64,000 nt of DNA from Escherichia coli (lineage in GTDB: Bacteria; Pseudomonadota; Gammaproteobacteria; Enterobacterales; Enterobacteriaceae), in assembly GCF_044324875.1 (NCBI RefSeq), contig NZ_CP172185.1; one strand, 5' to 3'. Numbering within the stretch: the stretch's first letter is position 1; each line of letters begins with the position of its first letter. Under the pieces are notes generated by a model. The model did not search any database, was not told the origin of the DNA, and saw only the letters and a program-made list of their open reading frames with translations. The translations under genes and the position numbers were made by a program. Below are positions 1 through 16,605 of this stretch, in pieces.

Positions 1-678
1 ACACTTAATGAGTGTACAAAATCGCAGCAATCCGCACTGGTCGTGCTCTGGGAAATCGATCTGACAGAGGTCGGTGGAGAACGTTATTTTTTCTGTAATG
101 AGCAGAACGAAAAAGGTGAGGCGGTCACCTGGCAGGAGCGGCAGTATCAGCCGTATCCCATTCAGGGGAGCGGATTTGAGATGAACGGCAAAGGAGCCAG
201 TGCCAGACCAACACTGAAAGTCTCTAATCTGCACGGTATGGTCACCGGTATGGTGGAAGATATGCAGAGTCTGGTCGGCGGAACGGTGGTCAGGCGTAAG
301 GTTTACGCCCGTTTTCTGGATGCGGTGAACTTCGTCAACGGAAACAGCGACGCCGATCCGGAGCAGGAGGTGATCAGCCGCTGGCGCATCGAGCAGTGCA
401 GCGAACTGAGCGCGGTGAGTGCCTCCTTTGTACTGGCCACGCCGACGGAAACGGACGGCGCTGTTTTTCCGGGACGTATCATGCTGGCCAACACCTGCAC
501 CTGGACCTATCGCGGCGATGAGTGCGGTTATAGCGGTCCGGCGGTCGCGGATGAATATGATCAGCCGACGTCCGATATCACGAAGGATAAATGCAGCAAA
601 TGCCTGAGCGGCTGTAAGTTTCGCAATAACGTCGGCAACTTTGGCGGTTTTCTTTCCATTCACAAACTTTCGCAGTAA
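1..678 (+). CDS. Phage minor tail protein L (lambda gpL-like), 5' end outside the window
   Basis: Frame-1 translation from base 1 (TLNECTKSQQSALVVLWEIDLTEVGGERYFFCNEQNEKGE...) is near-identical to lambda L as I recall it; stop at 676-678. Confidence 0.85.
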   Translation, partial: TLNECTKSQQSALVVLWEIDLTEVGGERYFFCNEQNEKGEAVTWQERQYQPYPIQGSGFEMNGKGASARPTLKVSNLHGMVTGMVEDMQSLVGGTVVRRKVYARFLDAVNFVNGNSDADPEQEVISRWRIEQCSELSAVSASFVLATPTETDGAVFPGRIMLANTCTWTYRGDECGYSGPAVADEYDQPTSDITKDKCSKCLSGCKFRNNVGNFGGFLSIHKLSQ

Positions 679-682
679 TTCC

Positions 683-1426
683 ATGACAGAGACAGAATCA
701 GCGATTCTGGCGCACGCCCGGCGATGTGCGCCAGCGGAGTCGTGCGGCTTCGTGGTGAGAACGCCGGAGGGGGAAAGATATTTTCCCTGCGTGAATATCT
801 CCGGTGAGCCGGAGGATTATTTCCGGATGGCTCCGGAGGACTGGCTGCGGGCAGAAATGCAGGGTGAGATTGTGGCGCTGGTCCACAGCCACCCCGGTGG
901 TCTGCCCTGGCTGAGTGAGGCCGACCGGCGGCTGCAGGTGCAGAGTGATTTGCCGTGGTGGCTGGTTTGCCGGGGGACGATTCATAAGTTCCGCTGTGTG
1001 CCGCATCTCACCGGGCGGCGTTTTGAGCACGGGGTGACGGACTGTTACACGCTGTTCCGCGATGCCTATCATCTTGCAGGTATCGATTTGCCGGATTTTT
1101 ACCGACATGATGACTGGTGGAAATCAGGTCAGAATCTCTATCTTGACAATATGGAGGCGACTGGTTTTTACCGTGTCGCACTGACAGAGGCGCAGCCCGG
1201 CGACGTGCTGCTGTGCTGTTTTGGTTCATCGGTGCCGAATCATGCCGCCATTTACTGCGGCGACGGCGGGCTGCTGCACCATATTCCTGAACAACTGAGC
1301 AAACGAGAGAGGTATACCGACAAATGGCAGCGACGCACACACTCCCTCTGGCGTCACCGGGCATGGCACGCATCTGCCTTTACGGGGATTTGCAACGATT
1401 TGGCCGCCGCATCGACCTTCGTGTGA
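683..1426 (+). CDS. Phage tail assembly protein K (NlpC/P60 plus JAB/MPN metalloprotease-like)
   Basis: MTETESAILAHARRCAPAESCGFVV...; HSHP JAMM-like motif (EIVALVHSHPGGLPWLSEADRRL); position between L and I. Confidence 0.85.
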   Translation: MTETESAILAHARRCAPAESCGFVVRTPEGERYFPCVNISGEPEDYFRMAPEDWLRAEMQGEIVALVHSHPGGLPWLSEADRRLQVQSDLPWWLVCRGTIHKFRCVPHLTGRRFEHGVTDCYTLFRDAYHLAGIDLPDFYRHDDWWKSGQNLYLDNMEATGFYRVALTEAQPGDVLLCCFGSSVPNHAAIYCGDGGLLHHIPEQLSKRERYTDKWQRRTHSLWRHRAWHASAFTGICNDLAAASTFV

Positions 1427-1971
1427 AAACGGGAGCCGAAGCCATCCGGGCGCTGGCCACGCAGCTCCCTGCGTTTCGTCAGAAACTGAGCGACGGCTGG
1501 TATCAGGTGCGTATTGCCGGGCGTGATACAGGCGAAAACGAATTATCAGCCCGTCTTAATGAACCGCTGGCAAATGGTGCCGTGATCCACATCGTGCCGC
1601 GTCTGGCGGGAGCCAAACGTGGTGGTGTGTTTCAGGCAGTGCTGGGCGCGGCGCTGATTGCGGTGGCATGGTGGAACCCTGCAGGCTGGCTGGGGGCTGC
1701 GGCTTTATCGGGCATGTATGCGGCAGGGGCCAGTATGGTGCTCGGTGGTGTGGCGCAGATGCTGGCACCGAAAGCCAGAATGCCCGGAGTATCAGCCACG
1801 GATAACGGCAAACAGAACACCTATTTCTCCTCACTGGATAACATGGTTGCCCAGGGGAATGCTCTGCCCGTTCTGTACGGTGAAATGCGCGTGGGGTCAC
1901 GGGTAATTTCGCAGGAGATCAGCACAGCGGATGAGGGGGATGGCGTCCGGGTTGTGGTGATTGGTCGCTGA
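1324..1971 (+). CDS. Phage tail assembly protein I (lambda gpI-like)
   Basis: MAATHTLPLASPGMARICLYGDLQRFGRRIDLRVKTGAEAIRALATQLPAFRQKLSDGWYQVRIAGRD... matches lambda I; overlaps the K 3' end as in lambda. Confidence 0.85.
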   Translation: MAATHTLPLASPGMARICLYGDLQRFGRRIDLRVKTGAEAIRALATQLPAFRQKLSDGWYQVRIAGRDTGENELSARLNEPLANGAVIHIVPRLAGAKRGGVFQAVLGAALIAVAWWNPAGWLGAAALSGMYAAGASMVLGGVAQMLAPKARMPGVSATDNGKQNTYFSSLDNMVAQGNALPVLYGEMRVGSRVISQEISTADEGDGVRVVVIGR

Positions 1972-3659
1972 TGAAAAACGTTTTATGTGAAACCGCCTCC
2001 GGGCGGTTTTGTCGTTTATGGAGCGTGAGGAATGGGTAAAGGCAGCAGTAAGGGGCATACCCCGCGCGAAGCGAAGGACAACCTGAAGTCCACGCAGTTG
2101 CTGAGTGTGATCGATGTCATCAGCGAAGGGCCGATACAAGGACCGGTGGATGGATTAAAAAGCGTGCTGCTGAACGGTACGCCGGTGCTGGACAGTGAGG
2201 GGAATACCAATATATCCGGCGTCACGGTGGTATTCCGGGCCGGTGAGCAGGAGCAGACGCCGCCGGAGGGATTTGAATCCTCCGGCTCCGAGACGGTGCT
2301 GGGTACGGAAGTGAAGTACGACACGCCGATTACCCGGACCATCACGTCGGCAAACATCGACCGTCTGCGCCTGACCTTCGGTGTGCAGGCACTGGTGGAA
2401 ACCACCTCAAAGGGGGACCGGAATCCGTCGGAAGTCCGCCTGCTGGTTCAGATACAGCGTAACGGTCGCTGGTTAACGGAAAAAGACATCACCATTAAGG
2501 GCAAAACCACCTCGCAGTATCTGGCCTCGGTGGTGGTGGGTAACCTGCCGCCGCGCCCGTTCAGTATCCGGATGCGCAGGATGACGCCGGACAGCACCAC
2601 AGACCAGCTGCAGAACAAAACGCTCTGGTCGTCATACACCGAAATCATCGATGTGAAACAGTGCTACCCGAACACGGCACTGGTCGGTGTGCAGGTGGAT
2701 TCGGAGCAGTTCGGCAGCCAGCAGGTGAGCCGTAATTATCATCTTCGCGGGCGCATTCTGCAGGTGCCGTCGAACTATAACCCGCAGACGCGGCAATACA
2801 GCGGTATCTGGGACGGAACGTTTAAACCGGCATACAGCAACAACCCGGCCTGGTGTCTGTGGGATATGCTGACCCATCCGCGCTACGGCATGGGGAAACG
2901 TGTTGGCGCAGCGGATGTGGATAAATGGGCGCTGTATGTCATCGGCCAGTACTGCGACCAGTCAGTGCCGGACGGCTCTGGTGGCACGGAGCCGCGCATC
3001 ACCTGTAATGCCTGGCTGACCACACAGCGTAAGGCGTGGGATGTGCTCAGTGATTTCTGCTCGGCGATGCGCTGTATGCCGGTATGGAACGGGCAGACGC
3101 TGACGTTCGTGCAGGACCGACCGTCGGATAAGGTGTGGACCTATAACCGCAGTAATGTGGTGATGCCGGATGATGGCGCGCCGTTCCGCTACAGCTTCAG
3201 CGCCCTGAAGGACCGCCATAATGCCGTTGAGGTGAACTGGAGTGACCCGGATAACGGCCAGGAGACGGCGACAGAGCTTGTGGAGGACACGCAGGCCATT
3301 GCCCGTTACGGTCGTAACGTCACGAAGATGGATGCCTTTGGCTGTACCAGCCGGGGGCAGGCACACCGCGCCGGGCTGTGGCTGATTAAAACAGAACTGC
3401 TGGAGACGCAGACCGTGGATTTCAGCGTGGGTGCTGAAGGGCTTCGCCATGTACCGGTGCAAAATGGCATCTGAATCGATCGCAGTTTGGCATTCGAATC
3501 GATCATGATTTGGCATCCATCTCCGATCACAGTTTGGCATCACAATCGATCACGATTTGGCATGCTTCCGATCATTGATTGGCATCCTGCCAGTCACTCC
3601 GGGAATTAACTCTTTTCACCACAGTCTCCATTGCCGTGTTTAAACCAGTGGAGACGTCA

Positions 3660-5225
3660 ATGTCCAGAAAGAGAAAATCCAGGAGCACTATGGAAACCTG
3701 TTTTAAGATCCTTCAGCTCAAGTTCGACAAGAAGCTGACTAACCGTTGTATCGGACTGACGTTACACATCAGCGCCTCAACCGTTTTTGAGGTTCTTGCC
3801 CGCTTCAAAGCCTCTTCTCTGTCATGGCCATTACCTGCTGATATATCCCATGACACGCTGGAGAAACTCATTTTTCCGCCCAAAGACACCTTTGCATCAG
3901 AGCTTGTAATGCCTGACATGTTGTACTTCGATACGGAAATGAGAAAACCAGGTGTGACGCGGCAACTGTTGTGGATGGAATACAAGGCACAGGCGGGTAA
4001 CAAAGCGATGGGATACTCGCACTTCTGCCGTTGCTACCGGGAGTGGAAAAAAACGCGACGTCTCTCCATGCGCCAGGAGCATCGTGCCGGCGAAAAGCTT
4101 TTTATCGACTTCTGTGGTCCTACGGTTCCTGTTATTAATCCGGACACCGGTGAGATACGCCGCGTGGCAATCTTCGTGGCCGTAATGGGGGCGTCCAACT
4201 ATACCTACGTTGAAGCGTGCGAAGGTCAGGACATGATGTCATGGTTAAATGCCCACAGCCGTTGCCTGACCTTCCTGGGCGGCGTACCGAAGCTGCTCAT
4301 CCCCGATAACCTCAGAAGCGCAGTGAAAAAGGCCGATCGATATGAGCCTGTCATCAACGACAGTTATCAGGCACTGGCTGAGCACTATGGCACGGTTATC
4401 ATCCCGGCCCGACCACGCAAACCTAAAGATAAACCAAAAGCAGAAAACGGCGTCCTCATCGTTGAACGATGGCTTCTTGCCCGCATCCGTAATGAAACCT
4501 TCCACACGCTCAGGGCGCTGAATGCGCGCCTTAGGGAGTTACTGACAGACATGAATAACCGGCCAATGAAGGGGTACGGCAATCAAACCCGTGCAGAACG
4601 CTTCCGCATACTGGATGCGCCAGCACTCTCTCCGCTGCCTCTGGCACCTTATGAATACACGGAATACAAAGCTGTGAAGGTTGGCCCTGACTACCACGTT
4701 GAATATGCCCGTCACTGGTACTCCGTTCCACACGAACTGGTCGGTCAGCGTCTGTCACTGAAGGCGGGGCAGTCGGTGGTACAGCTCTGGCACAAGGGGC
4801 AGTGTGTGGCGCAACATCCGCGCAGCACACATGAATATAAACACACAACCAATCCGCTTCACATGCCAGAGCGCCACCGGCAGCACGGGACATGGACACC
4901 GGAACGCCTGATCGAGCAGGGAAAACGTACGGGCCCGTCCACAGGCCGGGTGGTTGAATCCATGCTGAAGGCAAAACCCCATCCGGAACTGGCTTATCGT
5001 GCAGTTCTGGGGCTGCTGGCACTTCAGAAAAAATACGGCCCGGAACGGCTGGAAAAGGCCTGTTACGTTGCCCTGCACTATAACGCCCCTGACAGACGCT
5101 TTATCGACAATCTGCTGCGTCACCATCGGGAGAACCTGGAGCTTCCATTATCCCGCCAGGGCGAACAACATCCGGCATATGCTTCAGAGCATGAAAACCT
5201 GCGTGGTCCGGGCTACTACCACTGA
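3660..5225 (+). CDS. istA: IS21-family transposase IstA
   Basis: About 520 aa with N-terminal HTH region (...LSWPLPADISHDTLEKL...) and an IstA-like central/C-terminal region; start chosen at ATG 3660, upstream alternative start possible. Confidence 0.75.
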   Translation: MSRKRKSRSTMETCFKILQLKFDKKLTNRCIGLTLHISASTVFEVLARFKASSLSWPLPADISHDTLEKLIFPPKDTFASELVMPDMLYFDTEMRKPGVTRQLLWMEYKAQAGNKAMGYSHFCRCYREWKKTRRLSMRQEHRAGEKLFIDFCGPTVPVINPDTGEIRRVAIFVAVMGASNYTYVEACEGQDMMSWLNAHSRCLTFLGGVPKLLIPDNLRSAVKKADRYEPVINDSYQALAEHYGTVIIPARPRKPKDKPKAENGVLIVERWLLARIRNETFHTLRALNARLRELLTDMNNRPMKGYGNQTRAERFRILDAPALSPLPLAPYEYTEYKAVKVGPDYHVEYARHWYSVPHELVGQRLSLKAGQSVVQLWHKGQCVAQHPRSTHEYKHTTNPLHMPERHRQHGTWTPERLIEQGKRTGPSTGRVVESMLKAKPHPELAYRAVLGLLALQKKYGPERLEKACYVALHYNAPDRRFIDNLLRHHRENLELPLSRQGEQHPAYASEHENLRGPGYYH

Positions 5226-5241
5226 CAGAAGGAACAACAGT

Positions 5242-5997
5242 ATGAGTGATAACCTGTTAAACAAACTGACCCAACTGAAACTCCCGGCGATGGCCGGGAG
5301 CCTGATACGGCAGCGGGAAACGCCTCAGACCTACGACGAACTGTCGTTCGAGGAAAGGCTGACGCTGCTGGTTGATGACGAGCTTCTGAGCAGGGAAAAC
5401 AGCCGTGTGGCACGGTTGAGAAAAAATGCCGGCCTGAAATACCAGGCAACACCGGAAGGGCTGCGCTATCCGGCCTCAAGAGGTCTGCGGGCTGAACAGA
5501 TGAGAGAACTGCTGAACGGCCACTACATAACCCACAGGAAAAACCTGCTGATAACCGGTCCGACAGGATGTGGCAAGAGCTGGATAGCCAATGCGCTGGG
5601 CGAACAGGCATGTCGACAGAAACACAGCGTCCGGTACTGTAGAACCGGGCGATTACTGGAACAACTGGCTCAGGGACGTGTTGATGGCAGCTGGCTGAAA
5701 TATCTGAAACAGTTGCAAAAAATACAGGTTCTAATCCTGGACGATCTGGGGCTGGAACAGTTAAGTAACGCCCAGTGTAATGACCTTCTGGAGCTCATAG
5801 AGGATCGTTACGGACAAAGCAGCACGATAGTGGTAAGCCAGTTCCCGGTAGATAAATGGCATGGTCTGATGGAGAACCCAACAACAGCAGATGCCATCCT
5901 GGACAGACTGGTACATAACTCACACCGAGTGGTCCTTCAGGGAGAGTCACTGAGGAAAAATCCCCCGGTAGTGGAAAGCAGCGAAAAAACGCGTTAA
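5242..5997 (+). CDS. istB: IS21-family helper ATPase IstB
   Basis: 251 aa; Walker A GPTGCGKSWIANALG; Walker B LILDDLG; typical IstB size and position after istA. Confidence 0.85.
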   Translation: MSDNLLNKLTQLKLPAMAGSLIRQRETPQTYDELSFEERLTLLVDDELLSRENSRVARLRKNAGLKYQATPEGLRYPASRGLRAEQMRELLNGHYITHRKNLLITGPTGCGKSWIANALGEQACRQKHSVRYCRTGRLLEQLAQGRVDGSWLKYLKQLQKIQVLILDDLGLEQLSNAQCNDLLELIEDRYGQSSTIVVSQFPVDKWHGLMENPTTADAILDRLVHNSHRVVLQGESLRKNPPVVESSEKTR

Positions 5998-8218
5998 AAA
6001 GCGGTAGAAAAAGTTAAGTTCCCGGTTGATCGAATGGATGCGAATCGCTGATCGGACTTCGATGCCAATCCGTGATCGAATAGAGCGGAATACGCATACC
6101 GGGCGATGTCATTGAAATCTGTGATGATGACTATGCCGGTATCAGCACCGGTGGTCGTGTGCTGGCGGTGAACAGCCAGACCCGGACGCTGACGCTCGAC
6201 CGTGAAATCACGCTGCCATCCTCCGGTACCACGCTGATAAGCCTGGTTGACGGAAGTGGCAATCCGGTCAGCGTGGAGGTTCAGTCCGTCACCGACGGCG
6301 TGAAGGTAAAAGTGAGCCGGGTTCCTGACGGCGTTGCCGAGTACAGCGTGTGGGGGCTGAAGCTGCCGACGCTGCGCCAGCGCCTGTTCCGCTGCGTGAG
6401 TATCCGTGAGAACGACGACGGCACGTATGCCATCACTGCCGTGCAGCATGTACCGGAAAAAGAGGGCATCGTGGATAACGGGGCACACTTTGACGGTGAC
6501 CAGAGCGGCACGGTGAATGGTGTCACGCCGCCAGCAGTGCAGCACCTGACTGTCGAAGTCACCGCAGACAGCGGGGAGTATCAGGTACTGGCCCGCTGGG
6601 ACACGCCGAAGGTGGTGAAAGGCGTGAGTTTCATGCTTCGCCTGACCGTGGCAGCGGATGACGGCAGTGAGCGGCTGGTCAGCACGGCCCGGACGACGGA
6701 AACCACATACCGCTTCAGGCAGCTGGCGCCGGGGAACTACAGGCTGACAGTCCGGGCAGTAAATGCCCGGGGGCAGCAGGGAGACCCGGCGTCGGTATCG
6801 TTCCGGATTGCCGCACCGGCAGCGCCGTCGCGGATTGAGCTGACGCCGGGCTATTTTCAGATAACCGCCACGCCGCATCTTGCCGTTTATGATCCGACGG
6901 TGCAGTTTGAGTTCTGGTTCTCGGAAAAGCGGATTACCGATATCAGGCAGGTTGAAACCACAGCCCGTTATCTTGGTACCGGAAGTCAGTGGCTTGTCTC
7001 CGGCCAGAATATTAAACCTGGCCATGATTATTACTTTTATATCCGCAGTGTTAACACTGTCGGTAAATCGGCATTCGTGGAGGCAGTCGGTCGGGCGAGT
7101 AATGATCCTGCCGGTTACCTTAATTTTTTCAGGGGGGCGATAAATAAAACGCATCTGGGACGGGAGATCAATGAACGCATTGATGCCTCTGCACGGCGCA
7201 CTGAAGTTGAGCAACTGGAGAATGCGATTAACCGCGAAATGACGCAGCTGGAGAATGCGATTAACCGCGAAATGACGCAGCTGGAGAAAGATGTGAGGCA
7301 GCGTGCGGAGCGTGATATCGCAGAGGTGACGAAAAAAATCACGGCGTCTGAAAACAGCATAACGGAACTGGTGGCGAAAAAGAGCGGTGAACAGTCGCTG
7401 GCCATTGCGAAAGTCGACAGGAAAGTTGACAGCGTGAGCAGTGAAATCCGGCAGACAGTAAGCAGGAGCACGGAGGAGAACAGCCGACAGATAGCGCAGG
7501 TCAGGCAGTATGTTGATGATAAAAGTGCGCAAATAAGTACTGTTGTGGCGAAAAAGAGCGGTGAACAGTCAATGGCCATTGCGGAAGTTGACAGAAAAGT
7601 TGACAGGATGGGCAGCGAAATCCGGCAGACAGTAAGCAGGAGCACGGAGGAGAACAGCCGACAGATAGCGCAGATCAGACAGTATGTTGATGATAAGGGA
7701 AGTCAGATCAAACAGAGCACGGATAAAAAACTGGGATCCTGGAATGCCAGCATTGAGCAGATACAGAAAGTTCAGGAGGACACGCGCCGGAACCTGAACA
7801 GCATGTGGGCTGTGAAGCTGCAGCAGACACGGGATGGACGTCTCTATATTGCAGGTATTGGTGCCGGAATCGAAAATACGTCTGACGGAATTCAGAGTCA
7901 GATCCTGATGCAGGCAGATCGTATTGCGATGATTAACCCGGAAAATGGCAATACAACACCTTTGTTTGTGGCTCAGGGTGATCAGCTGTTCATGAATGAT
8001 GTTTTCATGAAAAAACTGACCGTGGATTTTGCCAGAGTGACGGGAGATATCCGGTCAGATAATTTTCATTCCGGTAGTCCGGGGTGGCGTTTATCAAGAA
8101 ACGGCAGCCTTGAAATTAACTCAGGAAGGCCCGGCGCAGGCCGCCTGTTTTTCAATGGCGAGCGAATCGACGTATATGACGATAACAATGTGTTAAGAGT
8201 ACGACTGGGGAGACTGTA

Positions 8219-8479
8219 ATGTTCGGAGTCCGGGTATGGCGCAAAGGGCGCCTTGTGACACATGAAATAAACCCAACAGGGGTGCTGGATGTGATCACTG
8301 AAGGGACGGGGCAGCGTTCTTATACTCCTTTGCAGGGCTGGCGTCTGGAAGTCTGTTCACCGGCCATTCTGATTAACGGTCAGGGAAGTCATACCAGTGC
8401 CAGTGTATCCGGCTGGACAGTGCACTATGCCAACACAAGCTGGCTAAGACCCGTGCTGGTCATGATAAGGGGGATCTGA
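8219..8479 (+). CDS. Hypothetical phage protein, translationally coupled to J (TAATG overlap)
   Basis: 86-aa ORF starting on the J stop codon; no motif I can recognise. Confidence 0.4.
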   Translation: MFGVRVWRKGRLVTHEINPTGVLDVITEGTGQRSYTPLQGWRLEVCSPAILINGQGSHTSASVSGWTVHYANTSWLRPVLVMIRGI

Positions 8480-9141
8480 TGTTTGCACTTAAATTAACTG
8501 ATGAGCGGGGGAGAGAATGGATATCACCTGTTGCGCCGCCACTGAACCTTGTGCGCCGTTTTCATTTCACACTGAGTGCGCGTGATGCGGTGATGCAGTT
8601 TATCGACACCGGGGTGCCGACGAATTATCGTTGCGTGATTTTTATTAAACAGATAAGCGGTAATCAGTCCTTCCATGGTGAAATGGTTCAGCTTAACGGT
8701 ACCTGGCAGTATGACATTTTCAGCGCTGGTACAGGGCAGGAGCCGGGCATGGAACAGGACAGCACATATGTTGTTTATGTTTTTGCCAACATGGTGAATG
8801 TATGGCCGCAATGGGGAATACAGTTGTGCGACAGTCATGGCAGGGTGGTCTGGAACACGGAAATGCTGCCACTGGAAGTAAAAATGACGCGAATATGGGA
8901 AAAGGATGTACCGATCAGTGTGGGACATGATGTGGCCGTAATGCCGGGGTGTACCCAGTGGACGACAGTTCAGGAAGGGGAGAGTTATTACTGGTATACC
9001 GCCAGTTTTAATGCCAGAAACTCACAGTTATGGCGTCAGTCAACTTTTGCTGAAGATAACGTAGCGGCGCCCAATGATAATTCAGGTGTTGTTAATAACC
9101 TCTGTTATTACATAAATGCAGAAATTTATGATGCGTACTGA
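8479..9141 (+). CDS. Hypothetical phage protein (tail-associated or moron), coupled by TGATG overlap
   Basis: 220-aa ORF, Trp/Tyr-rich, no recognisable catalytic motif; sits between J and the side tail fiber. Confidence 0.45.
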   Translation: MFALKLTDERGREWISPVAPPLNLVRRFHFTLSARDAVMQFIDTGVPTNYRCVIFIKQISGNQSFHGEMVQLNGTWQYDIFSAGTGQEPGMEQDSTYVVYVFANMVNVWPQWGIQLCDSHGRVVWNTEMLPLEVKMTRIWEKDVPISVGHDVAVMPGCTQWTTVQEGESYYWYTASFNARNSQLWRQSTFAEDNVAAPNDNSGVVNNLCYYINAEIYDAY

Positions 9142-9162
9142 TAGTTATGTTGAGGGCATGTA

Positions 9163-9408
9163 ATGAAAATAATCGTCTGCACTTTTTTGCTGTTTCTTGT
9201 ATCAGGTTGCGCGGGGTACCGTTCCGTTACGGAGAGAGTCCGGTGCACCGGTGTGCTGAGTCCCGGGGTTTTACAGCGAGCTTATACGGTAGATCTTACA
9301 GGGAAAATAGAAACGAAAAGCGGCACTGTGTATAAAGTATCAGCTCCGAGATTTTATGGTCAGTGGGTGAGTGAAGATATGTTTACGAAAGTTTCGTGCG
9401 TGAAGTAA
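9163..9408 (+). CDS. Small phage lipoprotein, candidate Cor-like superinfection-exclusion protein
   Basis: 81 aa; signal peptide with lipobox MKIIVCTFLLFLVSGC; lies where lom/cor-type genes sit in lambdoid phages. Function is inferred. Confidence 0.5.
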   Translation: MKIIVCTFLLFLVSGCAGYRSVTERVRCTGVLSPGVLQRAYTVDLTGKIETKSGTVYKVSAPRFYGQWVSEDMFTKVSCVK

Positions 9409-9483
9409 TCATAAAAACACCCGATTGTAAATGAATGACGACGCCCGCAATTTTGCGGGATTATTTTTATTTGTGGAGCGAGT

Positions 9484-10812
9484 ATGGCGGCTGTAAAAAT
9501 TTCAGGCGTGCTCAGGGACGGAACCGGAAAACCGGTACCGGGATGCATTATTGAGCTGAAAGCGAAGAGAACCAGCGAGACAGTCATCGCCACGACAGTG
9601 GCTTATGGCATGCCGGAAGAGACGGGGAGTTACAGTATGGATGTGGAGCCAGGAATATACAGGGTGACACTCAATACAGAAGGTTACCGTCCTTCGTATG
9701 TGGGAGATATCGTGGTCAGGGAGGATTCTTCACCGGGAACACTGAATAAATTTCTGATGGAGATGGAAGATGCTCCTTATTATCCGAAGGCGTTGTCAGA
9801 GCTGGAGGCTGTGGTGCAGTCCATACTGCACAGAGCAGAGTCCGCGGCATCTGAGGCGGAGGAAGCCCGGAAGCGAGCAGCATCTGCCCGGGGACCACGA
9901 GGAGAGAAAGGGGATACCGGCGCTCGTGGTGAAAGAGGCATTACCGGGCCACAGGGGCCAAAAGGTGAAACAGGAGCACGTGGCCCGGCAGGACCACAGG
10001 GACCAAAAGGTGAAACAGGTGAACGCGGTCCGGCAGGTCCACAGGGACCAAAGGGCGATACAGGTGAACGCGGCCCGGCAGGTCCACAGGGACCAAAAGG
10101 TGAAACAGGTGCACGTGGTCCGGAAGGTCCACAGGGAGCAAAAGGTGAAACAGGTGAACGCGGCCCGGCAGGTCCACAGGGAGCAAAGGGCGAAACAGGT
10201 GCACGTGGTCCGGAAGGCCCTCAGGGTCTGAAGGGAGAAAAGGGTGAGCGAGGAGAAAAAGGCCCTAAGGGGGATAAAGGAGATCCGGGAGGTCCACAGG
10301 GACCAAAAGGTGAAACAGGTGAACGTGGCCCGGCAGGTCCACAGGGACCAAAAGGTGAAACAGGTGAACGTGGCCCGGCAGGTCCACAGGGACCAAAGGG
10401 CGATACAGGTGAACGCGGTCCGGCAGGTCCACAGGGGCCAAGAGGGTATACAGGTGAACGCGGGCCGACAGGTCTACAGGGGCCAAGAGGGTATACAGGT
10501 GAACGCGGGCCGGCAGGTCCACAGGGGCCAAGAGGAGAAGCGGGGCGGCCAGCGAGCGTCGGAAGTGTTTATTCCGTGGGGTCTTATGTTCTGGGGATCA
10601 TAGAACGAAATCATGAGATAACAAATACCCGTCAAATACCCGGGTATCGTATCAGACAGGCCGTTATTGTGTCGTCGTCATCGGATAAACTTACAGATAT
10701 CCGCTTTTTATTTGGCAATCCTATGCTTGGTACATGGATGTTATGCACAACTAACATGGCGGTGAATAATATCAGTGGGACGATTTGGGGCCTGTTTCAG
10801 AGAATACTGTGA
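9484..10812 (+). CDS. Prophage side tail fiber protein with collagen-like Gly-X-Y repeat region
   Basis: N-terminus [29 protein letters not shown]... resembles the Stf N-terminal domain of E. coli prophages; about 220 aa of GxY triplets ([19 protein letters not shown]...). Confidence 0.8.
9886..10548 (+). repeat. Tandem, roughly 45-bp coding repeats (collagen-like Gly-X-Y) inside the tail fiber gene
   Basis: Repeated [15 protein letters not shown] units at nucleotide level; the ORFs in other frames and on the opposite strand over this stretch are repeat artefacts. Confidence 0.8.
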
Positions 10813-11002
10813 CAGGGGGAGAAATGAATGAAGGTCGATAAAATCACGTCACCAGTGTGGGCTGACAGGGGTCATACGACCATAAACTGTATAGTGAAGT
10901 TTTCAGACGCGGAAACAGAATGTGTATTTACAGCAAGTGCGGATGATCCGTAACCGGCTCATTTAAACCGTCTGGTCTGTTTCCTCCGGCTCTACAAAAA
11001 TA

Positions 11003-11680
11003 ATGTCCATCATTTTTAATGGACACTATCGTATGAAACACCGGACCTGGATCACTGAAGCTTTACGTCTTCACTTTGAAGAACATTTACCCCGGGTTGT
11101 GGCCGGGCGTCGCCTGGGTGTACCAAAATCAACAGTTTGTAGTATGTTCGTGCGCTTTCGGAGAGCTGGCCTTTCGTGGCCTTTGCCCGCAGGCATGTCG
11201 GAGCAGGAACTTGATGCCTGCCTTTACGGACAATTTTCCACGGTACCAGTCGTACGTCCTGAAAGCACCGTTATATCCGAAGCCCCCGTGGTAAAAAAAC
11301 GTCCCCGGCGGCCCAACTTCCCTTATGAGTTTAAAATCGCCTTAGTGGAGCAGTCACTGCAGCCCGGAGCCTGTGTGGCGCAGATCGCCCGGGAAAACGG
11401 AATCAACGATAACCTGCTCTTCAACTGGCGCCATCAATACCGGAAAGGTGGCCTGCTGCCTTCCGGAAAAAATATGCCGGCACTGCTTCCCGTGACGTTA
11501 ACGCCGGAGCCGGATAATAAAATCCCGGCCCCCGCACAGGAACCAGAGCAGATAAATACACCGTCCGACAGTCTGTGTTGTGAGCTGGTTCTGCCGGCCG
11601 GAACTCTCAGGCTTAAAGGTAAACTGACGCCGGCGTTATTACAGACACTTATCCGCGAAATAAAAGGGAGCAGCCACTGA
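11003..11680 (+). CDS. tnpA: IS66-family accessory protein (orfA/TnpA) with N-terminal HTH extension
   Basis: C-terminal part ...PNFPYEFKIALVEQSLQPGACVAQIARENGINDNLLFNWRHQYRKG is IS66 orfA-like; N-terminal part carries an LSWPLPA HTH-like motif. Start codon uncertain. Confidence 0.7.
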   Translation: MSIIFNGHYRMKHRTWITEALRLHFEEHLPRVVAGRRLGVPKSTVCSMFVRFRRAGLSWPLPAGMSEQELDACLYGQFSTVPVVRPESTVISEAPVVKKRPRRPNFPYEFKIALVEQSLQPGACVAQIARENGINDNLLFNWRHQYRKGGLLPSGKNMPALLPVTLTPEPDNKIPAPAQEPEQINTPSDSLCCELVLPAGTLRLKGKLTPALLQTLIREIKGSSH

Positions 11681-12027
11681 TGATATCTCTCCCTGCAGGT
11701 TCGCGTATCTGGCTGGTTGCAGGTATCACCGATATGCGAAATGGCTTTAACGGCCTGGCATCAAAAGTTCAGAACGTCCTGAAGGATGACCCGTTCTCCG
11801 GACACCTGTTCATCTTCCGCGGACGCCGGGGTGACCAGATAAAAGTGTTGTGGGCTGACAGTGACGGACTGTGCCTCTTCACCAAACGCCTGGAGCGGGG
11901 CCGCTTCGTCTGGCCAGTCACCCGTGACGGCAAGGTGCACCTTACTCCGGCTCAGTTATCCATGCTTCTTGAAGGTATCAACTGGAAGCACCCGAAACGA
12001 ACGGAACGCGCTGGAATCCGCATATAA
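11680..12027 (+). CDS. tnpB: IS66-family TnpB (Orf2)
   Basis: 115 aa MISLPAGSRIWLVAGITDMRNGFNGLASKVQNVL...; overlapping start with orfA stop. Confidence 0.85.
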   Translation: MISLPAGSRIWLVAGITDMRNGFNGLASKVQNVLKDDPFSGHLFIFRGRRGDQIKVLWADSDGLCLFTKRLERGRFVWPVTRDGKVHLTPAQLSMLLEGINWKHPKRTERAGIRI

Positions 12028-12046
12028 CCCGTTGTAAAGTGAGGAT

Positions 12047-13618
12047 ATGGACACCTCACTTGCTCATGAGAACGCCCGCCTGCGGGCACTGTTGCAGACG
12101 CAACAGGACACCATCCGCCAGATGGCTGAATACAACCGCCTGCTCTCACAGCGGGTGGCGGCTTATGCTTCCGAAATCAACCGGCTGAAGGCGCTGGTTG
12201 CGAAACTGCAACGTATGCAGTTCGGTAAAAGCTCAGAAAAACTTCGTGCAAAAACCGAACGGCAGATACAGGAAGCACAGGAGCGAATCAGCGCACTTCA
12301 GGAAGAAATGGCGGAAACGCTGGGTGAGCAATATGACCCGGTACTGCCATCCGCCCTGCGCCAGTCTTCAGCCCGTAAACCGTTACCGGCCTCACTTCCC
12401 CGTGAAACCCGGGTTATCCGGCCGGAAGAGGAATGCTGTCCTGCCTGTGGTGGTGAACTCAGTTCTCTGGGATGTGATGTGTCAGAGCAACTGGAGCTTA
12501 TCAGCAGCGCCTTTAAGGTTATCGAAACACAACGTCCGAAACAGGCCTGTTGCCGGTGCGACCATATCGTGCAGGCACCAGTACCTTCAAAACCCATTGC
12601 ACGCAGTTATGCCGGAGCGGGGCTTCTGGCCCATGTTGTCACCGGGAAATATGCAGACCATCTGCCGTTATACCGCCAGTCAGAAATATACCGTCGTCAG
12701 GGAGTGGAGCTGAGCCGTGCCACACTGGGGCGCTGGACAGGTGCTGTTGCTGAACTGCTGGAGCCGCTGTATGACGTCCTGCGCCAGTATGTGCTGATGC
12801 CCGGTAAAGTCCATGCTGATGATATCCCCGTCCCGGTCCAGGAGCCGGGCAGCGGTAAAACCCGGACAGCCCGGCTGTGGGTCTACGTCCGTGATGACCG
12901 TAACGCCGGTTCACAGATGCCCCCGGCGGTCTGGTTCGCGTACAGTCCGGACCGGAAAGGTATCCATCCACAAAATCACCTGGCCGGTTACAGCGGTGTG
13001 CTTCAGGCCGATGCTTACGGTGGTTACCGGGCGTTATACGAATCCGGCAGAATAACGGAAGCCGCGTGTATGGCTCATGCCCGGAGAAAAATCCACGATG
13101 TGCATGCAAGAGCGCCCACCTACATCACCACGGAAGCCCTGCAGCGTATCGGTGAACTGTATGCCATCGAGGCAGAGGTCCGGGGCTGTTCAGCAGAACA
13201 GCGTCTGGCGGCAAGAAAAGCCAGAGCCGCGCCACTGATGCAGTCACTGTATGACTGGATACAGCAACAGATGAAAACACTGTCGCGTCACTCAGATACG
13301 GCAAAAGCGTTCGCATACCTGCTGAAACAGTGGGATGCACTGAACGTGTACTGCAGTAATGGCTGGGTGGAAATCGACAACAACATCGCAGAGAACGCCT
13401 TACGGGGAGTGGCCGTAGGCCGGAAAAACTGGATGTTCGCGGGTTCCGACAGCGGTGGTGAACATGCGGCGGTGTTGTACTCGCTGATCGGCACATGCCG
13501 TCTGAACAATGTGGAGCCAGAAAAGTGGCTGCGTTACGTCATTGAACATATCCAGGACTGGCCGGCAAACCGGGTACGCGATCTGTTGCCCTGGAAAGTT
13601 GATCTGAGCTCTCAGTAA
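12047..13618 (+). CDS. tnpC: IS66-family transposase TnpC
   Basis: 523 aa; N-terminal coiled coil, Cys cluster CCPACGGEL...CCRCDH, DDE-type catalytic region. Confidence 0.85.
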
Positions 13619-14475
13619 ATATCAATACGGTTCTGACGAGTCGCTTACGATGATCCTGAGTCTTACGGTCGTGAAATATTTGAAGCCTGCATAAGAGGTG
13701 ATGCAGGGCCGGTAGGTGAGTACCGGGCAAATGATGATATGGCTGTGGAAGAAGCACGCAGGATGAAAAACGCGGAGATAAATGCCTGGCGTGATGCGAT
13801 GGAGGCGTCAGGGTATGTTTTTGAGCACAGAGGACGGAAATGGGATTATGGAAAGGAAACCATGACACGTCTTGGAATGTCGGCATCAGCGGCCAGAGGC
13901 GGTGTGTTGCCGGAAGGATTTTTCTGGACGGACGCAGAGAATAATGATGTACCGATGACGGCAGATGAACTGATATCCCTGAGTGATGCTGCTGGTAAAG
14001 CGATGTTCAGGAAAGGCCTTGAAATACATATAAGGCAAAGGGAGATGAAAAAGGCAATAGCAGAACTGAGTGACAGTGAAACCATTCTGGCGTACAGGGT
14101 TGGATGGTGAAACTGATAAAAAAACCCCTCTGAAAATTCTGTCAGAGGGGGGCAAGGATCTATATTTATTATGCGGTAATGCTTTCACTCCGGTAATTAA
14201 TTTCAGTGATTAACTGCTTTCGATCAATAAAGGAATTGCAAAAAGGTGATCTTGTTCACGACATTGTGGATGATAATATGCCTGATGTCTGAATCCGGAA
14301 ACAGTGATCTGGCGGGTTTCATGTGAAGTTGACGGATAAAAAATCCGCACGACCAGACAGACGTGCGGTTTACGAAATTCGTAACAAGAGGCTTTTCTAG
14401 GGATCACGTGGTGCGTGCCACGTGAAATTTTTGTAGCGCAAAATGTGTAATGTGTAAATACAAGGAAGGAAAAAG

Positions 14476-14805
14476 TTAAATCGGTGGAAGTCCATACCGG
14501 GAACGTGCACGGTTACATGCTTCGTTTTCAATACCATTTTCACCAGACATGGCAAATTCCCGGCACGTTGATGAACGGTTTTCGTAGATGGTACAGCTCG
14601 CTTCTTTACCTGGTGTTCCTGCAAGGGCAATACATCTGGGGTTTTTCTGGTTTGTACCGATCATGCATCGGTGCAAAGGCGATACTTGTTCAGTAAGTCT
14701 GGCTGGAATGGTGCCGCCAGCATCGTCGGCTTCGGCCCAGTAAAAAGAGACGCGGAAAAATGCACAACAGGCACCACACGTTATGCATGGATTTGGATTG
14801 CTCAT
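14476..14805 (-). CDS. Small Cys-cluster protein (CxxCxxCC, YkgJ/UPF0153-like putative zinc or iron chelating domain) at the prophage edge
   Basis: 109 aa [28 protein letters not shown]...; motif C-x2-C-x2-C-C plus further conserved Cys. Confidence 0.5.
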
Positions 14806-15166
14806 AATTCACCACAGCTATAAATTATAAAGAAAACCGCAGCATGTCGTATGCAAGAACGTGCTGCAGCTGGCTGGTTAACTTTCGATAGTGCGAGTAT
14901 TGAATGATTTCCAGCCGTTACCGATTTTATATAACTGCAGTGGAATTATTCAACACAGGCAAAACGGAATAAGCTGAGAAAAAAGCGTACTTTCCCAATC
15001 TGGGGCAAATCACGTCTGAATGACACCTGACAACAGATGGTGGCCTCAAGAAGGCTTGGAATATTCTTCTTTAATGTTATGTAAATTATTGATTTTTCGT
15101 GTACGATTTTAAGACATTTATTCCAAGAAAAATTTTTAACTCTTTGATTTTTCGACTCTGTATCAT

Positions 15167-15228
15167 CGGTCTCGAAAACCGGAGTAGGGGCAACTCTACC
15201 GGGGGTTCAAATCCCCCTCTCTCCGCCA
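15167..15228 (+). other. Prophage attachment site (attR): 62-nt 3' fragment of the tRNA-Ser (CGA, serU-type) gene without the 5' half
   Basis: CGGTCTCGAAAACCGGAGTAGGGGCAACTCTACCGGGGGTTCAAATCCCCCTCTCTCCGCCA matches the 3' part of tRNA-Ser from the anticodon stem onward; no complementary GGAGAGA acceptor strand upstream. Confidence 0.75.
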
Positions 15229-15895
15229 CTTTATCAATGACTTATCTCCCGACTTCCCGCCTTGCTTTTCCTAAACAGAACAATCGTAGAATATTCTTGA
15301 AGGGTTAGATCGTCACTGTTTTCTGTTCGATACTGTGACATTCAGCACTTGATTCGCTATGGATCTGACAGGAAGGTTTCGAGCGAAAATCTGCAATTAT
15401 TCAGTCGTTTTCTTATCGGTCACCATTATTCTTTTAGACATTGATCCTACAAAGCTGCCGCAAAGTTGGTGGTGGGAACTGAAGTTGCGTAGAGAAGTGG
15501 TCAATAATTGAGCAAAAAAAGGAACGCGGCCGTCAGATTAAAGCCGCGGGACAAAGTCCATAATTTCCAAGAGTTGTTGAATTTCCCAGCTTTTTTGAAA
15601 GCCTTCGTATCATACTAACAAGTAAAAAAGGTTTAAATACCAAAATTAACCTATATTTCTGGTTAGCTTTACCATGACAGATGACTTGCTCCTGGAGACA
15701 TTGGCGCAGCCAGTCTGTATTGGTGAGTTGTGTATTTATTGTTCGCCGTTTTCTCAGTTTTTTCTACAGACATAATAAAAAAGACACGTCTCAAGCATGA
15801 GCGTGTCTGAGTTTGTCTTATTTATTTGTCTTGGTAAATTATTGTCGTTACTACCAGGCACTGTTCTGTTAAATAATTGAATCAGCGAAAAAAAA

Positions 15896-16546
15896 TCAAT
15901 GAGACATCATTTCCTCGACCACTTCTTCGCTACTCAACTGATAGGGATAATACGTTGGCCAGTTTTCCATTTCATTTAATAAAGATTGCTGTGAATCATT
16001 ACCCATAAAAATGTGAAAATGAGATGATTTTCGTGGTGCAATTATATGATCGCTAAATTGAATATATTTAGGGGCTTTGCTTTCAGGATCTTTACATTCG
16101 AATAAATAACGAACGCCTTTCTTACCTGATTTATAGGTGAGTATTTTGTATCCATCGTAATCATATTTACAGGATGTTGTTTCATTATTTCTATGGAATT
16201 CAACAATGCCGTCCTCAATGCCAATCATCTCGATATCTGTCACATAACCTTTGCGATAATAATCTTTAATTTCAGCAAATGTTTTGGTTTTATCTGCATC
16301 CGCTTTCTTCTGAAAGACGGGGTCAAGTTTGCCACTTTGCAGTAAAGGATAAACGGATTGCCATACTCCATCCCAGTCACTTAGCGTTCGGTTTTGTACA
16401 TTGGCATCATCAAAAACACCATTAGCAGCTTTTTGTTCGACCTCTGTTAAGGGTTTGCCGTGTGAGTGATGACCATGCGAAAAGGCAGGAGCGCTAACAA
16501 TAAAGACACCTAAAGCAACAGCCAGTTTATGAAGACGAATCGCCAA
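15896..16546 (-). CDS. zinT: Zinc/cadmium-binding periplasmic protein ZinT
   Basis: 216 aa; signal peptide then His-rich HGHHSHG; matches ZinT (YodA). Confidence 0.95.
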
Positions 16547-16582
16547 AACAGTTTCCTCCAGAGTTAATGTATATAATGTGTA

Positions 16583-16605
16583 ATGTTATATTGTAACATA
16601 TAACA
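16583..16605 (-). promoter_or_regulatory. Putative Zur box in the zinT promoter
   Basis: AT-rich palindrome-like ATGTTATATTGTAACATAT just upstream of zinT; zinT is known to be Zur-regulated. Confidence 0.4.

Follow-up and report, generated by a model that had tools for sequence, protein, structure and literature searches.

The zinT-serU interval

The window, the whole 64-kb stretch of Escherichia coli DNA that was analysed, carries the distal part of a prophage at its left end and, to the right of this, the chromosomal locus around zinT. Between the two lies a short interval at the place where E. coli K-12 has yodB. The features of the locus are as follows.

1-15166, plus strand: distal (tail) end of a lambdoid prophage in serU, assigned by blastn against the TUM1886 locus, PGAP annotation and Pfam
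3458-6098: IS21-family element, 2641 bp, with an IstA-like 548-aa ORF (rve, Mu-transpos_C_2) and an IstB ATPase
10950-13648: IS66-family element, 2699 bp, with an HTH_Tnp_1 ORF, TnpB_IS66 and DDE_Tnp_IS66
15167-15228, plus strand: 62-nt 3' fragment of serU, tRNA-Ser(CGA), identical to K-12 serU at 2043468-2043529
15229-15895: interval from the serU fragment to the zinT stop codon, 667 bp, 39% G+C, longest ORF 50 aa
15229-15675: non-coding spacer 3' of serU, 447 bp, about 96% identical to K-12 2043021-2043467
15510-15548, minus strand: G+C-rich hairpin with a 7-bp stem (CGCGGCC/GGCCGCG) followed by UUCCUUUUUUU, which contains a U7 run; found by strand folding
15676-15895: haplotype-specific segment, 220 bp, delimited by blastn against K-12 and by genome matches that cover either the full 667 bp or positions 1-447 only
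15772-15808, minus strand: predicted zinT intrinsic terminator, hairpin AGACACGCUC...GAGACGUGUCU followed by UUUUUAUUAU, starting 88 nt past the zinT stop codon
15896-16546, minus strand: zinT (yodA), 216 aa, periplasmic metal-binding protein, identified from the ORF list, the K-12 annotation and sliding identity

The zinT region is 96% identical to that of K-12, and the orthologue in strain EFF60 is annotated as zinT. In the ORF list msrQ, msrP and hiuH come next on the same (minus) strand, with hprR beyond them on the plus strand. In flanking genes, gene order and orientation (hprRS, hiuH, msrPQ, zinT ... serU) the locus agrees with the K-12 zinT-yodB-serU locus (b1973-b1975), the window presenting the K-12 order in reverse, with 97.5% identity across 6 kb on the zinT side. 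A palindrome, ATGTTATATTGTAACAT, is found at 16575-16600, shortly before the zinT start. Its similarity to the Zur-box operator that we would expect for a zinc-regulated zinT makes it a candidate for such a site.

On the opposite side of the interval, the alignment of the serU fragment with the intact serU of EFF60 diverges upstream of 15167, and ARAGORN found no intact tRNA in the entire window. The fragment is an exact copy of the 3' end of the tRNA gene, with phage DNA to its left and the native downstream flank to its right. On these sequence features it is a displaced copy of the attachment core, of the attR type, at the junction of prophage and chromosome. The prophage continues past the left edge of the window, and the intact serU must be located further out on that side.

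The lack of a 60-aa ORF in the interval is unremarkable by itself, because 58% of shuffles of this 667-bp sequence, with its 39% G+C, likewise contain none; only the comparison with K-12 is informative. The 447-bp spacer has a match in 5420 of 5426 complete E. coli genomes, in both of the haplotypes described below, and neither in K-12 nor in the genomes listed does the matching stretch carry an annotation.

Comparison with K-12

The first-pass annotation had noted that 15229-15895 contains no ORF of 60 aa or more, which the 50-aa maximum bears out. It had also placed yodB between zinT and serU in K-12, while allowing that this placement might be wrong. The placement is correct: the K-12 annotation gives the order zinT-yodB-serU (b1973, b1974, b1975), which disposes of the suggestion of a faulty map. 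The synteny comparison that it had proposed yields a K-12 interval of 1442 bp, containing yodB (b1974, 176 aa), against 667 bp here. The K-12 YodB protein matches PF01292 (prokaryotic cytochrome b561) in Pfam, and we take yodB to be a cytochrome b561 homologue and one of three paralogues.

The TBLASTN search that had likewise been suggested, with K-12 YodB against all 64 kb of the window, gave a best E-value of 0.36, and the protein is absent from this stretch. The interval contains no ORF of about 176 aa matching YodB or PF01292, and none longer than 50 aa. When the K-12 995-bp segment was compared with the window by blastn at a word size of 7, no remnant of a yodB pseudogene appeared; the sole match was a 30-bp hairpin next to zinT, at 83% identity. 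As both searches came back empty for yodB, the gene has not been relocated within these 64 kb.

The boundaries between shared and differing DNA are sharp. Homology to K-12 in blastn ends exactly at the zinT stop codon (15896) and restarts at window position 15675, corresponding to K-12 2043021, from where it runs into serU; the two breaks thus lie at the zinT stop codon and, towards serU, after TTACCAT. The 220 bp at 15676-15895 occupy the place of 995 bp in K-12 that carry yodB and are not homologous to them, the only similarity being the hairpin of about 30 bp situated about 90 bp from the zinT stop codon. A simple deletion of yodB was considered and is ruled out, since an unrelated 220 bp stands here in place of the 995 bp. 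Nor does a gradient of divergence into zinT mark an import by homologous recombination: by sliding identity, the last 200 bp of the gene (15896-16095) agree with K-12 at 99% of positions all the way to the haplotype break at the stop codon.

Distribution of the two forms in E. coli

The first-pass annotation had listed a strain difference among its possible explanations, and this is the one that holds. The yodB-less form, counted as a match to the full 667 bp, is present in 2281 of the 5426 complete E. coli genomes (42%). The K-12 995-bp yodB segment is found in 3114 of the same genomes, in 3073 of them at nearly full length. The two classes are complementary, summing to 5395 of 5426. APEC O1, the O104:H4 strain FDAARGOS_349 and EFF60 are examples of the yodB-less class; K-12, ATCC 8739, O157:H7 and O121:H19 are examples of the yodB-bearing class. 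In the three yodB-less strains named, the interval measures 667-670 bp, is 95-99.7% identical to that of the window and bears no annotated gene.

The absence of yodB here is an ordinary and common strain polymorphism that is already known. Presence or absence of the gene separates two clones of E. coli ST410, B4/H24RxC, which carries it, and B5/H24RxC, which does not (PMC10786849).

The prophage at serU

The prophage in the window is collinear with that of TUM1886 from minor tail protein L through gpJ, the tail fibre gene and DUF4376 to YkgJ. Pfam matches in the region comprise IstB_IS21, rve/Mu-transpos_C_2, TnpB_IS66, DDE_Tnp_IS66, DUF4376 and CxxCxxCC. The IS21-family element (3458-6098) is inserted in the tail-tip gene gpJ and flanked by a 4-bp target duplication, as judged against the uninterrupted TUM1886 prophage; the IS66-family element (10950-13648) lies at the boundary between the tail fibre gene and DUF4376, with an 8-bp target duplication by the same comparison. 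Given the two insertions together, the prophage is probably defective. At its end is a YkgJ-family gene on the minus strand (14476-14805), just upstream of which, at 14803-14868 on the plus strand, there is a partial, sub-threshold Rfam match to the Shigella small RNA CssrB (30 bits against a gathering score of 76, E = 0.001); this lies outside the interval.

Other lambdoid prophages are known at this site. The Stx1d prophage of O121:H7 is flanked by serU and yodB (PMC9729726), and yodB stands at the end of the GenBank record of phage SerU-LTIIb. These two (the former from strain RM8082) and the TUM1886 prophage resemble that of the window in both site and orientation: each lies in the 3' part of serU and turns its tail-fibre end towards yodB or zinT. 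They differ from it in keeping yodB beside the junction, while the window prophage is also broken by the IS21- and IS66-family elements.

Occupancy of serU among yodB-less genomes was assessed with a query consisting of the end of mtfA, an intact serU and the yodB-less interval, a match being at least 80% of the query length. By this measure, 1471 of the 2281 yodB-less genomes (about two thirds) have an intact, unoccupied serU directly beside mtfA, whereas the window has the prophage. K-12 likewise has an intact and unoccupied serU in contrast to the fragment seen here. In EFF60, mtfA is followed by serU, a 668-bp interval 99.7% identical to that of the window, and zinT, with no prophage. Conversely, in TUM1886 and AR_0085 an intact yodB lies next to this prophage end, which there too comprises the tail fibre gene, DUF4376, YkgJ and the serU fragment (98.4% identity). 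In an evenly spaced sample of the matches, presence and absence of yodB each occur with both an occupied and an unoccupied serU, and occupancy is roughly similar in the two classes.

Some genomes match the occupancy query only from position 288, about 14 nt before the 3' end of serU, which points to a different junction within the tRNA gene. In the yodB-less E. coli strain 82.0312 (positions 1-400 of the retrieved locus) the element side of the serU remnant bears a tyrosine integrase gene rather than tail genes, about 180 bp from the interval and with no tRNA annotated; a different mobile element thus uses the same serU site in that strain.

Explanations for the absence of yodB

As the prophage adjoins the interval, with the serU fragment at 15167-15228 and phage tail genes to its left, it is natural to ask whether prophage integration, or imprecise excision at serU, cost this strain its yodB; the first-pass annotation had raised a deletion linked to integration. 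A deletion of that kind would be expected to start at the attachment junction, yet the 447 bp beside the serU core are intact at about 96% identity to K-12, and the event would have had to skip them. It would also have to co-occur with the prophage across strains, but the same yodB-less allele is found in the 1471 genomes with an unoccupied serU, and the same prophage end stands beside an intact yodB in TUM1886, so that the absence of the gene is not tied to the prophage. Moreover, the 220 bp next to zinT are not a subset of the K-12 sequence. The yodB-less haplotype is independent of the serU prophage, and a prophage-linked deletion is extremely improbable.

It is scarcely more probable that the interval encodes an unannotated small protein, or a small RNA, in place of yodB. 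The candidates for the former are the 50-aa ORF at 15359-15511, which is intact in both the window and K-12, and a 33-aa ORF at 15674-15775; two hairpins in the interval also fold better than shuffles. Between the window and K-12, however, the 50-aa ORF has eight non-synonymous codon changes and one synonymous change, spread evenly over the three codon positions, and this excess without a third-position bias argues that it is not under coding constraint. The alignment with E. albertii lacks an ATG at the start of either ORF, and neither has a Pfam match. A search against Rfam at a permissive threshold returned only sub-threshold matches to the tRNA fragment, besides the weak CssrB match outside the interval, a promoter and terminator scan found no more sites than in shuffles, and PGAP annotates nothing in the interval among the genomes listed. 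The interval is non-coding.

Hairpins in the interval

The hairpin at 15772-15808 has a folding energy of -18.6 kcal/mol (z = -3.9), and none of 200 shuffles was as stable when the strand was folded. It lies 3' of the zinT stop codon, on the zinT strand, and is followed by U5AUUAU, the arrangement of a Rho-independent terminator as far as sequence features go. It is therefore the predicted terminator of zinT. In E. albertii this hairpin is kept, with an A to G and a T to C difference on opposite arms (AGACACG/CGTGTCT against AGGCACG/TGTGCCT). In K-12 it is also kept, and its distance from zinT is much the same, but it has no U run: at positions 6110-6150 of the retrieved K-12 locus, UAUAUUAAUAAG follows the hairpin instead.

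The second hairpin, at 15510-15548, is less striking (-16.4 kcal/mol, with a weak z of -1.9). It is common to both E. coli haplotypes and falls within a gap of about 93 bp in E. albertii (window positions of about 15512-15604) in a MAFFT alignment. It may act, or may once have acted, as an intrinsic terminator of transcription arriving from the zinT/yodB side. A simple promoter and terminator scanner missed both hairpins.

Origin of the two forms

In E. albertii NBRC 107761, serU is followed by a 567-bp interval and then by zinT, and yodB was not found within the 5 kb searched on either side of zinT. This interval is collinear with that of the window over the first 136 bp or so after serU (84% identity), in the junction region and at the zinT terminator hairpin. 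It differs in its length, in the gap that covers the 15510-15548 hairpin, and in having only about 60% identity in the zinT-proximal part. Nonetheless, homology between the 220 bp of the window and the E. albertii interval extends to either side of the zinT hairpin, with a score that none of 500 shuffles reached; the flanks of the K-12 hairpin show no significant similarity to either the window or E. albertii.

Escherichia sp. MOD1-EC7003 also has no yodB at the zinT locus. There (positions 5649-5802 of the retrieved locus) only about 154 bp separate zinT from a short 3' remnant of serU, and no intact serU lies within 5 kb, so the locus has been rearranged independently in that strain. These two are the only non-coli Escherichia loci in a thin outgroup sample, the ZinT scan of genome contigs having returned no representative of E. 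fergusonii, E. marmotae, E. ruysiae or E. coli. Among the 80 Enterobacterales loci retrieved, none has yodB beside zinT except two contigs from metagenome-assembled genomes (MAGs), whose zinT and yodB are 98-100% identical to those of E. coli and which we presume to come from E. coli.

The yodB-less class is also the more diverse, by a factor of 2.4 to 6, in a small sample of seven yodB-less and six yodB-bearing sequences in which phylogroup sampling could account for the contrast instead. The respective values for these seven and six sequences are 1.83% and 0.67% in the shared 447 bp, 4.23% and 1.74% in the non-coding DNA specific to each class, and 1.93% and 0.30% in the adjacent 400 bp at the 3' end of zinT.

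Among relatives of YodB, amino-acid identity drops from 99% within E. coli directly to 77% or less. A homologue with 76% identity is found in a prophage of Citrobacter portucalensis (GCA_013345705.1, positions 4001-4540 of the retrieved locus), where it sits in a moron position, with the lysis genes (Rz, lysozyme, holin) on one side and the HNH and terminase genes on the other. The context recurs in two further contigs from metagenome runs. The Salmonella homologue (65% identity) is chromosomal and in a different context. Between K-12 yodB and the Citrobacter prophage copy only the coding sequence matches, at 71.6% nucleotide identity; similarity of the K-12 flanks to this prophage was looked for and none was found. 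As the likeness is confined to the coding sequence, phage delivery of the E. coli cassette has no direct support.

The E. albertii arrangement, including its zinT hairpin, the higher diversity of the yodB-less class and the pattern of YodB relatives favour the yodB-less form as the older one. The converse would be that yodB is ancestral to E. coli, and that the yodB-less form is derived, through an old deletion-plus-replacement or through recombinational import of a yodB-less spacer from another Escherichia lineage. This would fit the putative minus-strand terminator at 15510-15548, which lies downstream of the place of yodB in both E. coli haplotypes and is absent from E. albertii, and it would also accord with a diversity of up to 1.8% in the yodB segment across phylogroups A and E, from which it follows that the cassette is not recent. 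It has to contend, however, with the alignment to E. albertii of the window's 220 bp but not of the K-12 995 bp, with the greater diversity of the yodB-less class in the linked flanks, and with the want of yodB beside zinT in the Enterobacterales loci other than the two presumed E. coli contigs. We consider an ancestral yodB unlikely.

The existence of the polymorphism, the frequency of each form and the lack of a link to the prophage are direct observations. As to its direction, it is reasonably probable that the yodB-less form is the older Escherichia arrangement and yodB a gain. A fuller account, which we favour by a modest degree, is that the K-12 state is derived: a yodB cassette of about 1 kb, from a gene family that travels as a moron in Citrobacter prophages, would have been acquired horizontally, would have replaced about 220 bp 3' of zinT in one E. 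coli lineage, and would then have spread by recombination to 57% of sequenced genomes, leaving the window and E. albertii with the ancestral form. Part of the K-12 995 bp may nevertheless be a very diverged homologue rather than foreign DNA, given the recognisable zinT hairpin within it.

Overall, we hold with considerable confidence that the interval is an ordinary, widespread yodB-less haplotype, independent of the prophage, and that this form most likely preceded the gain of yodB. The interval consists of the conserved 447 bp downstream of serU and 220 zinT-proximal bp that include the predicted intrinsic terminator of zinT. K-12-type strains have an unrelated 995-bp yodB cassette in place of these 220 bp, and yodB, once gained, would since have moved between lineages by recombination. 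The prophage explains only why a 62-nt fragment of serU, and not the whole tRNA gene, borders the interval.

Implications

For annotation, the interval should remain gene-free, with the 62-nt serU piece marking the prophage boundary, and there is no remaining suspicion that the serU prophage damaged the neighbouring chromosome. The lack of a U run after the K-12 hairpin raises the possibility of read-through from zinT into yodB in strains that carry the latter. Whether one of three cytochrome b561 paralogues was gained or lost here is a minor evolutionary footnote. yodB is an accessory rather than a core gene in E. coli, and K-12 synteny is not to be assumed at this locus.
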